Assembly: GCF_030684315.1 (NCBI RefSeq)
Contig: NC_081376.1
Coordinates: 34,439,608 to 34,503,607 of the forward strand
Direction of reading: 5' to 3'
DNA: 64,000 nucleotides
From: Stegostoma tigrinum
Lineage: Eukaryota
Made by a program: the position numbers and the translations under genes. The notes beneath the pieces were generated by a model that made no database searches, was not told where the DNA came from, and saw only the letters and a list, made by a program, of their open reading frames with translations. Positions 15,687 through 16,892 of this stretch are shown in pieces; position 1 is the stretch's first letter; the number at the start of each line of letters is the position of its first letter.

Positions 15687-16301
15687 GTAAGTCCTAATGG
15701 TTTTCAGTACTTACAACCTGCTCAGAATGGTCCTGAAGGTGCCTCCTTAGGTTGTGATAACCATGACTGTAATTATGACACCAAGTCCAATATTTTGCTC
15801 TGGGTAGTTTTCAAACCAGAGTCCCCACAATTTCTGCATTTATTGACAATTGAGCACATGATTTCTAGTGCTGTTTTGATTGAAATTCTTTCTTACAAGT
15901 AAAATATATTTTATGGTTACTAGTCTCTTTGTAGGATTGCAGAATGATTATAACATAGAAGGAGACCATTCGACCTGTTGTGTCCTGTCAGCTGTCTACA
16001 AGAGCAACTCAGCCAGTCTAACTCTTGCATCTTTTACCTGTAACCTGTAACCCTGGGAATCTTTTCTCCAGATATTTATCTGGATTCTCATTTGAAAGCC
16101 ATGATTGTGTCTGCTTCCATCACACTTTCAGGCAGTGCATGTGGCAACAGATCCTAGCCACTCACTATGTAGAAAATGTTTTCTTCATGCTACCACGTGT
16201 TCTTTTGTCATTAACTTTGTACTGGTGTCCTCTGGTTCTCAGCTGTTCCACCAGTGGGGACAGTTTTATCAATGTCTACTCTGTCCATATCATATGTGAC
16301 G

Positions 16302-16420
16302 GTATTCCCAGTCTTCTGGACAATTGTGCTGGGGTTCCAAATCCTCTCCAGACAGACAGGGATGGAGATGGAGTCGCAGATGCATGTGACAGTTGTCCTG
16401 AGATGAGTAATCTCACACAG
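16302..16420 (+). pseudogene. Orphan thrombospondin type-3 repeat exon (THBS3-like) in DAGLB intron 6
   Basis: (G)IPSLLDNCAGVPNPLQTDRDGDGVADACDSCPEMSNLTQ followed by a gt donor; no AG acceptor. Confidence 0.85.
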
Positions 16421-16892
16421 GTACTATCTATCACCTTCCACAATCCTTTTGTAAACAGATACTGCTTTTTGATGGAAGCAACAAAATACCTGCTGCAGAA
16501 TCCAGATTCTACTCTGTGTGATCGGTGTTTGTGTAAGTTCCTGCTAGATTCCAGTCACCTCTTTATTCCTTGCTTGGATTCTGTTCTCCTATATACCGCA
16601 CTCTTACAATATTGGATCCCACTGGAATCATCTGGAATGCCTTGGATAGATTTACCGGCCCCAGTCCCTCTTGTGGCATGAGCCCAGGCTATAAGGACCA
16701 GAAGGGATGTTTACCCATTTGATATGAGGCAGAAGGTAGGCTTACTGTTGACGAACATTAAACAGGTTCACTCCATCTTTCTGGAAAGCAAACTACATTA
16801 CAACTAAAGATATGAGGCATTGGGTTCCACTGAAGCGTAAGTTCACTTTGCTACTTTAGCTGAACACTGTTAACACAGAGAAAAATCACTAA

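Follow-up and report, generated by a model that had tools for sequence, protein, structure and literature searches.

The insertion in DAGLB intron 6

The window, by which we mean the whole 64-kb stretch of DNA analysed here, contains coding exons 6 (15553–15686, plus strand, with a phase-2 donor) and 7 (19641–19767, plus strand) of DAGLB, as located by mapping of this gene. Between them, in intron 6 by coding-exon count (a phase-2 intron), lies a 119-nt stretch at 16302–16420 (plus strand) which the first-pass annotation had described as an orphan thrombospondin exon. Both the location and the description were reproduced: the stretch is a stop-free thrombospondin reading frame, its 3' end is CAG|GT, and the two bases just before it are CG. 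The encoded peptide, corresponding to about residues 569–609 of THBS3 (TSP type-3 repeats), matches Pfam TSP_3 above the cut-off (E = 3.9e-9) and, in PDB, COMP, THBS2 and THBS1. The annotation had called this repeat closest to THBS3, which agrees with the identities found: the top identity among named full-length relatives is with shark thrombospondin-3/3a (up to 93%), and the exon copy is 99% identical in DNA to the THBS3 locus on contig C60, compared with 63% protein identity to the other thrombospondin loci. Judged on these identities, the source is THBS3 rather than a thrombospondin paralogue. The exon was also correctly said to stand alone, as a tblastn search of the 64-kb window with shark THBS3 found no further THBS3 exons, the stretch at 16302–16420 being the sole match.

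The exon copy is merely the front part of an insertion of 2,196 nt, extending from 16300 to 18495. The first-pass annotation was right about the exon but missed the plus-strand CR1 LINE (16893–18495) belonging to the same insertion, as well as the 8-nt direct repeat which borders it at 16292–16299 and 18496–18503 (both plus strand). The chance of finding such an 8-nt target-site duplication (TSD) at fixed places is about 2e-5; its right copy adjoins the CR1 tail, and the last two bases of its left copy (GA) also fit the upstream THBS3 exon (microhomology). The empty DAGLB site is present in all three runs of related species that were compared (X5 and X12 from organism B, X14 from organism C), in contigs joining 16291 to 18496 with eight letters that fit either flank, i.e. 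with a single copy of the TSD, and comparison with this site reveals no sequence loss from the DAGLB target. A check in related sharks had been proposed, and in organisms B and C the insertion is indeed absent and the site intact. No empty-site joint was found in the single run of organism A (X1), which is probably the assembled sample. The target is an old, decayed interspersed repeat, also present in the related species, whose left part (15930–16291) and continuation (18652–18816) were split by the insertion. The suggestion that the repeat to the left of the exon resumes near 18690 is borne out in three of the 21 repeat loci compared (L053, L054 and L066), where the left part is collinear with sequence near 18650–18800. 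A TSD, an empty ancestral site, a 3' end in a tail repeat and 5' truncation were all found, on which features the segment would be classed as a non-LTR insertion made by target-primed reverse transcription (TPRT).

The source in THBS3 and the CR1 LINE carried along

A DNA search of the own genome found one close second copy, starting at C60:335762 with 99% identity, and no copies of the window segment beyond this source and the window copy itself, which is the outcome of the copy count that the first-pass annotation had called for. The alignment (2,193 columns, 97% identity, 66 differing columns in total) places window positions 16301–18492 on C60:335762–337951, inside an intact THBS3 gene to which shark THBS3 proteins align one exon after another, the matched parts being stop-free. 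The order in the source is exon, 472 nt of intron and a 1.6-kb plus-strand LINE up to its tail, where the similarity stops; the source flank past the CR1 tail is absent from the window copy, the 3' end of which lies exactly at the tail. The 472 nt at 16421–16892 (plus strand), with four differences from the source, thus correspond to the 5' portion of the downstream THBS3 intron, which the copy has kept. As the similarity continues from the exon into this intron, the proposed capture from THBS3 is upheld. The CR1-bearing intron is 5.1 kb long and the intron upstream of the copied exon 706 nt. GT-AG joints on both sides of the source exon were found in contigs of organism C (X14 and X16, guessed to be RNA or with no kind on record).

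The LINE at 16893–18495 is a copy of the 5'-truncated, broken CR1 of the THBS3 intron. It contains a reverse transcriptase (RT) fragment with an RVT_1 domain match, a 3' UTR, a small hairpin and a 7-nt repeat tail which is about one unit longer than that of the source. Longer members of the family have an esterase ORF1 (Lipase_GDSL_2) and an endonuclease-RT ORF2 (Exo_endo_phos and RVT_1), a layout which, together with a microsatellite tail, we take to mark the family as CR1. It is by this domain layout and the tail repeat that the family would be assigned to the CR1 group; L2 elements are reported to be absent from galeomorph sharks (PMC13343379). The tail hairpin was predicted in four of four folds, with z-scores from −0.84 to 0.83, and a stability above that of shuffled sequences was not found. 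Since a TSD search among ordinary family copies proved unreliable (3–6 nt candidates, many of them off the junction), it provides no family control for the TSD length. A CR1 of a different, younger subfamily lies elsewhere in the window (41774–42487) and is 98% identical to C60:376901–377617.

The window and C60 CR1 copies have 19 rare substitutions in common from one end to the other, the final one some 30 nt short of the end of the tail, as well as five small deletions spread along the entire element. In each of the 28 other copies used for this count, between none and four of the rare changes are found. Only 40 of 15,252 candidates were scored, so some of these changes may mark an unsampled master. 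A pattern covering two of the deletions has four matches genome-wide, two of them besides the window and C60 copies. These two extra copies, on C14 and with the same small deletions, were considered as descendants of the source and rejected, having only one of 13 diagnostic sites in common with it. At 17379–17393, eight clustered differences and a 3-nt gain turn part of the CR1 into a short T-rich repeat, which looks like a single local repair event after insertion. In the source CR1 itself the 5' truncation falls inside ORF2, and a stop and frameshifts are present. A contig of organism B (X5, record 25) joins both of its flanks and lacks the element, which dates the arrival of the LINE in THBS3 to after the separation from B.

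A probable RNA template and alternative explanations

The first two inserted bases (CG, 16300–16301, plus strand), which take the place of the AG acceptor, are identical to the final two of the upstream THBS3 exon. That exon ends in GACG, and the window reads GA, the end of the TSD, followed by CG, where the genomic acceptor would read CCAG. The upstream intron was therefore likely spliced out, and the simplest reading of this sequence would be a spliced exon junction with 2 nt of microhomology. The splicing signal in the window copy amounts to a 4-nt match, of which a single G occurs in the genomic sequence as well and two bases belong to the TSD, and a single untemplated C added on an unspliced template would look identical. 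Untemplated 5' bases are known, and for the zebrafish element ZfL2-1, 5' joints via microhomology or extra bases and short TSDs are described as typical (PMC4245944).

A search with full-length THBS3 as query found a second orphan match in the genome, on contig C9 (C9:25790601–25788190, minus strand; L074/L075). Here the 3,246-nt intron between two THBS3 exons has been removed exactly, the intron after them has been kept, and the copy ends at the tail of a different CR1 stub, likewise in sense, with its source at C60:315414. It has a 6-nt direct repeat, three tail units compared with one in the source, and about 95% identity. The precise absence of the 3,246-nt intron implies an RNA template. 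The C9 and window copies are independent events of the same build, which would have arisen by the same route, and each of the two sense copies of the window-CR1 subfamily found within THBS3 has given one retrocopy. The C9 copy lacks two insertions of the source intron (C60:313924–314394 and 314668–314793), so it predates them, and its two exons are still stop-free, with seven synonymous and eight non-synonymous changes. No other copies of the C9 type were found in the genome, and a search with the upstream flanks of two sense-oriented stubs in THBS3 that belong to a different CR1 subfamily found no close second copy. Four further thrombospondin-family genes lie at C3:109.2–109.3 Mb, C38:0.22–0.24 Mb, C12:68.5 Mb and C11:88.56 Mb. 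A strict first look, which sets a floor, found no orphan exons of DAGLB or VPS35, and a similarly strict first look found none of these four genes. Two loci on C14 (C14:1535272, L070, and C14:17413003, L071) are 99% identical, with the same nested CR1 fragments, a 5' flank in common and similarity ending right after the CR1 tail; L070 also contains, by eye, decayed RT sequence resembling that of an LTR retrotransposon. A further 5' transduction, or a duplication that stops at the tail, may explain this pair.

We consider it very probable that 16300–18495 is a single, dead insertion made from half-spliced THBS3 RNA, primed at the intronic tail by a CR1 ORF2 protein (ORF2p) acting in trans. Repair of a break in DAGLB intron 6 from THBS3 genomic DNA, with ends fixed by the CR1 tail and microhomology, would account for the retained downstream intron, and the upstream evidence of splicing in the window copy is just 2–4 nt long. 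Such repair is nevertheless very unlikely in view of the clean 8-nt TSD without target loss, of a 5' end at the exon start and a 3' end exactly at a CR1 tail that exceeds the source tail in length, and of the C9 copy, as the precise removal of an intron of 3,246 nt is unattainable by DNA copying. The first-pass annotation had proposed unspliced genomic or pre-mRNA sequence as the captured material; capture from THBS3 stands, with a partly spliced RNA as the likely template, so that genomic DNA is disfavoured. Little probability is likewise left to a template switch, in which copying would have started on RNA from a different, active CR1 and switched, guided by homology, to THBS3 pre-mRNA near 17140. 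Divergence from C60, counted in events, does rise from 1.1% at 16301–17140 to 2.7% at 17141–18492, and is also higher in the CR1 part (39 events in 1,600 nt) than in the unique sequence before it (seven in 592 nt). The step near 17140 is however not significant in a change-point test (p = 0.125), 13 of the differences 3' of it are of the CpG type, at least 13 of the 19 rare common changes lie 3' of 17140, as far as 18466, and C60 is the closest of the 40 copies scored (96% compared with 94% or less).

An assembly chimera, by which THBS3 sequence was mis-joined into the DAGLB intron, might be suspected from the probable identity of run X1 with the assembled sample and from its right-junction contig, which extends no more than 19 nt into the insert. 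Its probability is nonetheless negligible: the copy differs from the source in the 66 columns given above, the empty site of the relatives contains exactly the TSD, an X1 contig covers 15400–16341, left junction included, without any difference, and X1 depth is 16.8 on the part common to the window and C60 compared with 8 on the flanks. There is also only a minute chance that the exon was recruited into DAGLB through a cryptic acceptor in the old repeat, as a poison exon or in a truncated DAGLB-TSP3 fusion. The native donor is intact and the three nearest upstream AGs (16242, 16254 and 16263) would keep the TSP repeat in the reading frame of DAGLB exon 6, but the frame is lost downstream, and all seven acceptor positions tested lead to a stop before the end of exon 7, which would truncate DAGLB; the first-pass annotation had said that inclusion would shift the frame of the mRNA. 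Moreover, all three exon substitutions relative to the source are non-synonymous and affect residues that do not vary among THBS3 proteins, one being the same in 26 of 27 sequences (the last is unaligned there) and the other two in all 27; for two of the three sites, the relatives carry the source allele. With CG at the acceptor and changes at three invariant residues, the exon lacks the marks of a functional one and is most likely, as far as its sequence tells, a neutral, decaying relic with no indication of function. The idea that it is raw material for exon shuffling holds in principle only, since here the acceptor is gone and the copy is in decay.

Proposed route and comparison with known systems

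In the route which we propose, the CR1 inserted in sense into the THBS3 intron after the split from organism B and would then have aged there into a 5'-truncated stub with a stop and indels and without ORF1, endonuclease or promoter, so that the enzyme would have come in trans. A THBS3 RNA from which the 706-nt upstream intron had been removed, with the 5.1-kb CR1-bearing intron still present, would have served as template, the ORF2 protein of an active CR1 binding the cognate tail of the dead sense CR1 inside the nascent transcript. As the hallmarks of the insertion suggest, TPRT would have been primed within the tail repeat where DAGLB intron 6 was nicked, gone on across the CR1, then the 472 intronic nt, then the exon, and halted 2–4 nt inside the upstream exon; joining of the 5' end would have left the 8-nt duplication. 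The copy has no AG acceptor, and three invariant residues have changed in it since. The CR1/L2 clades are credited with stringent 3' tail recognition, shown for zebrafish L2 and proposed for CR1 from SINE/LINE pairs (PMC4176376), and by analogy with zebrafish L2 elements, the only group with experiments, the ORF2p of this CR1 may need its cognate 3' stem-loop. Slippage in the tail repeat has been noted for UnaL2 (PMC3747384). Nascent RNA in a partly spliced state is reported to be abundant in lampbrush-stage chicken oocytes (bioRxiv 10.1101/2024.02.05.577752), and shark oocytes may offer the same substrate.

The 5' ends lie 2–4 nt (window copy) and 4–8 nt (C9 copy) upstream of the exon junction. 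The C9 match to the upstream exon consists of four contiguous bases with mismatches beyond, and this copy passed one junction without stopping. The probability of both ends falling so near a junction is about 0.003 under a uniform end point and with approximate exon sizes, a post hoc figure from two copies. It is conceivable, though we regard it as doubtful, that in CR1-rich genomes any CR1 stub lying in sense within an intron can serve to retropose nascent pre-mRNA and that the exon junction complex (EJC) or the spliceosome stops the RT just past an exon junction, so that whole exons are delivered. If true, copies would tend to start at an exon start and carry whole exons with their native donor, providing both a built-in route for shuffling exon modules and a fossil record of the order of co-transcriptional splicing in the germline. 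A literature search covering openly accessible papers found no report of truncation at exon junction complexes, nor one of a CR1 5' transduction of host pre-mRNA.

The insertion carries the upstream flank of an identifiable source element, in the sense of the host transcript, as is characteristic of 5' transduction, and the window copy is a lineage-specific, likely RNA-templated CR1 5' transduction of a THBS3 exon. Comparable events are known for SVA, where about 10% of copies are concerned, and, rarely, for L1 (PMC4859970). As in those cases, and as in the intronic L1PA2 of RAP1GDS1, which is driven by the host promoter (promoter co-option; bioRxiv 10.1101/2025.02.02.635956), a host transcript runs into an intronic sense retroelement and an upstream exon is retroposed; with all of these the THBS3 case also has in common a TSD and a source element that can be traced in the parent intron. 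The SVA and L1 cases, as these sources describe them, involve poly(A)-recognising L1 machinery, near-full-length elements, and mostly first exons, spliced onto the element. Here, in contrast, a dead, 5'-truncated 1.6-kb stub of a tail-specific CR1 with a 7-nt repeat tail and no poly(A) was used, the intron between exon and element is retained, and the exon is an internal one. The mobilisation in trans of an RNA that carries a cognate LINE tail recalls the sharing of tails between SINEs and LINEs (PMC4176376, PMC3747384), where however the passenger is repeated and has its own promoter; the THBS3 passenger is a unique protein-coding pre-mRNA, and the copy was made once. It also resembles partially processed retrocopies in being derived from RNA with some introns kept, and differs from those described in PMC5470649 in that it was not primed at a poly(A) end.

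According to the same review (PMC5470649), the sequence requirement of CR1 restricts which cellular RNAs can hitchhike, and the standard account of why CR1-dominated genomes hold few retrocopies is that the element depends on its own 3' tail. Dead intronic tails, which license the host's unfinished transcripts, are a likely way round this limit. Since both sense copies of the subfamily in THBS3 gave a retrocopy, and CR1-group elements are reported to make up 22–34% of the genomes of sharks and rays (PMC13343379), this may be a common route. Copies of this type would escape retrocopy pipelines that demand lost introns and poly(A), and the THBS3 case, with empty-site outgroups for target and source alike and with two independent copies from one gene, opens a long-standing claim to genome-wide testing.
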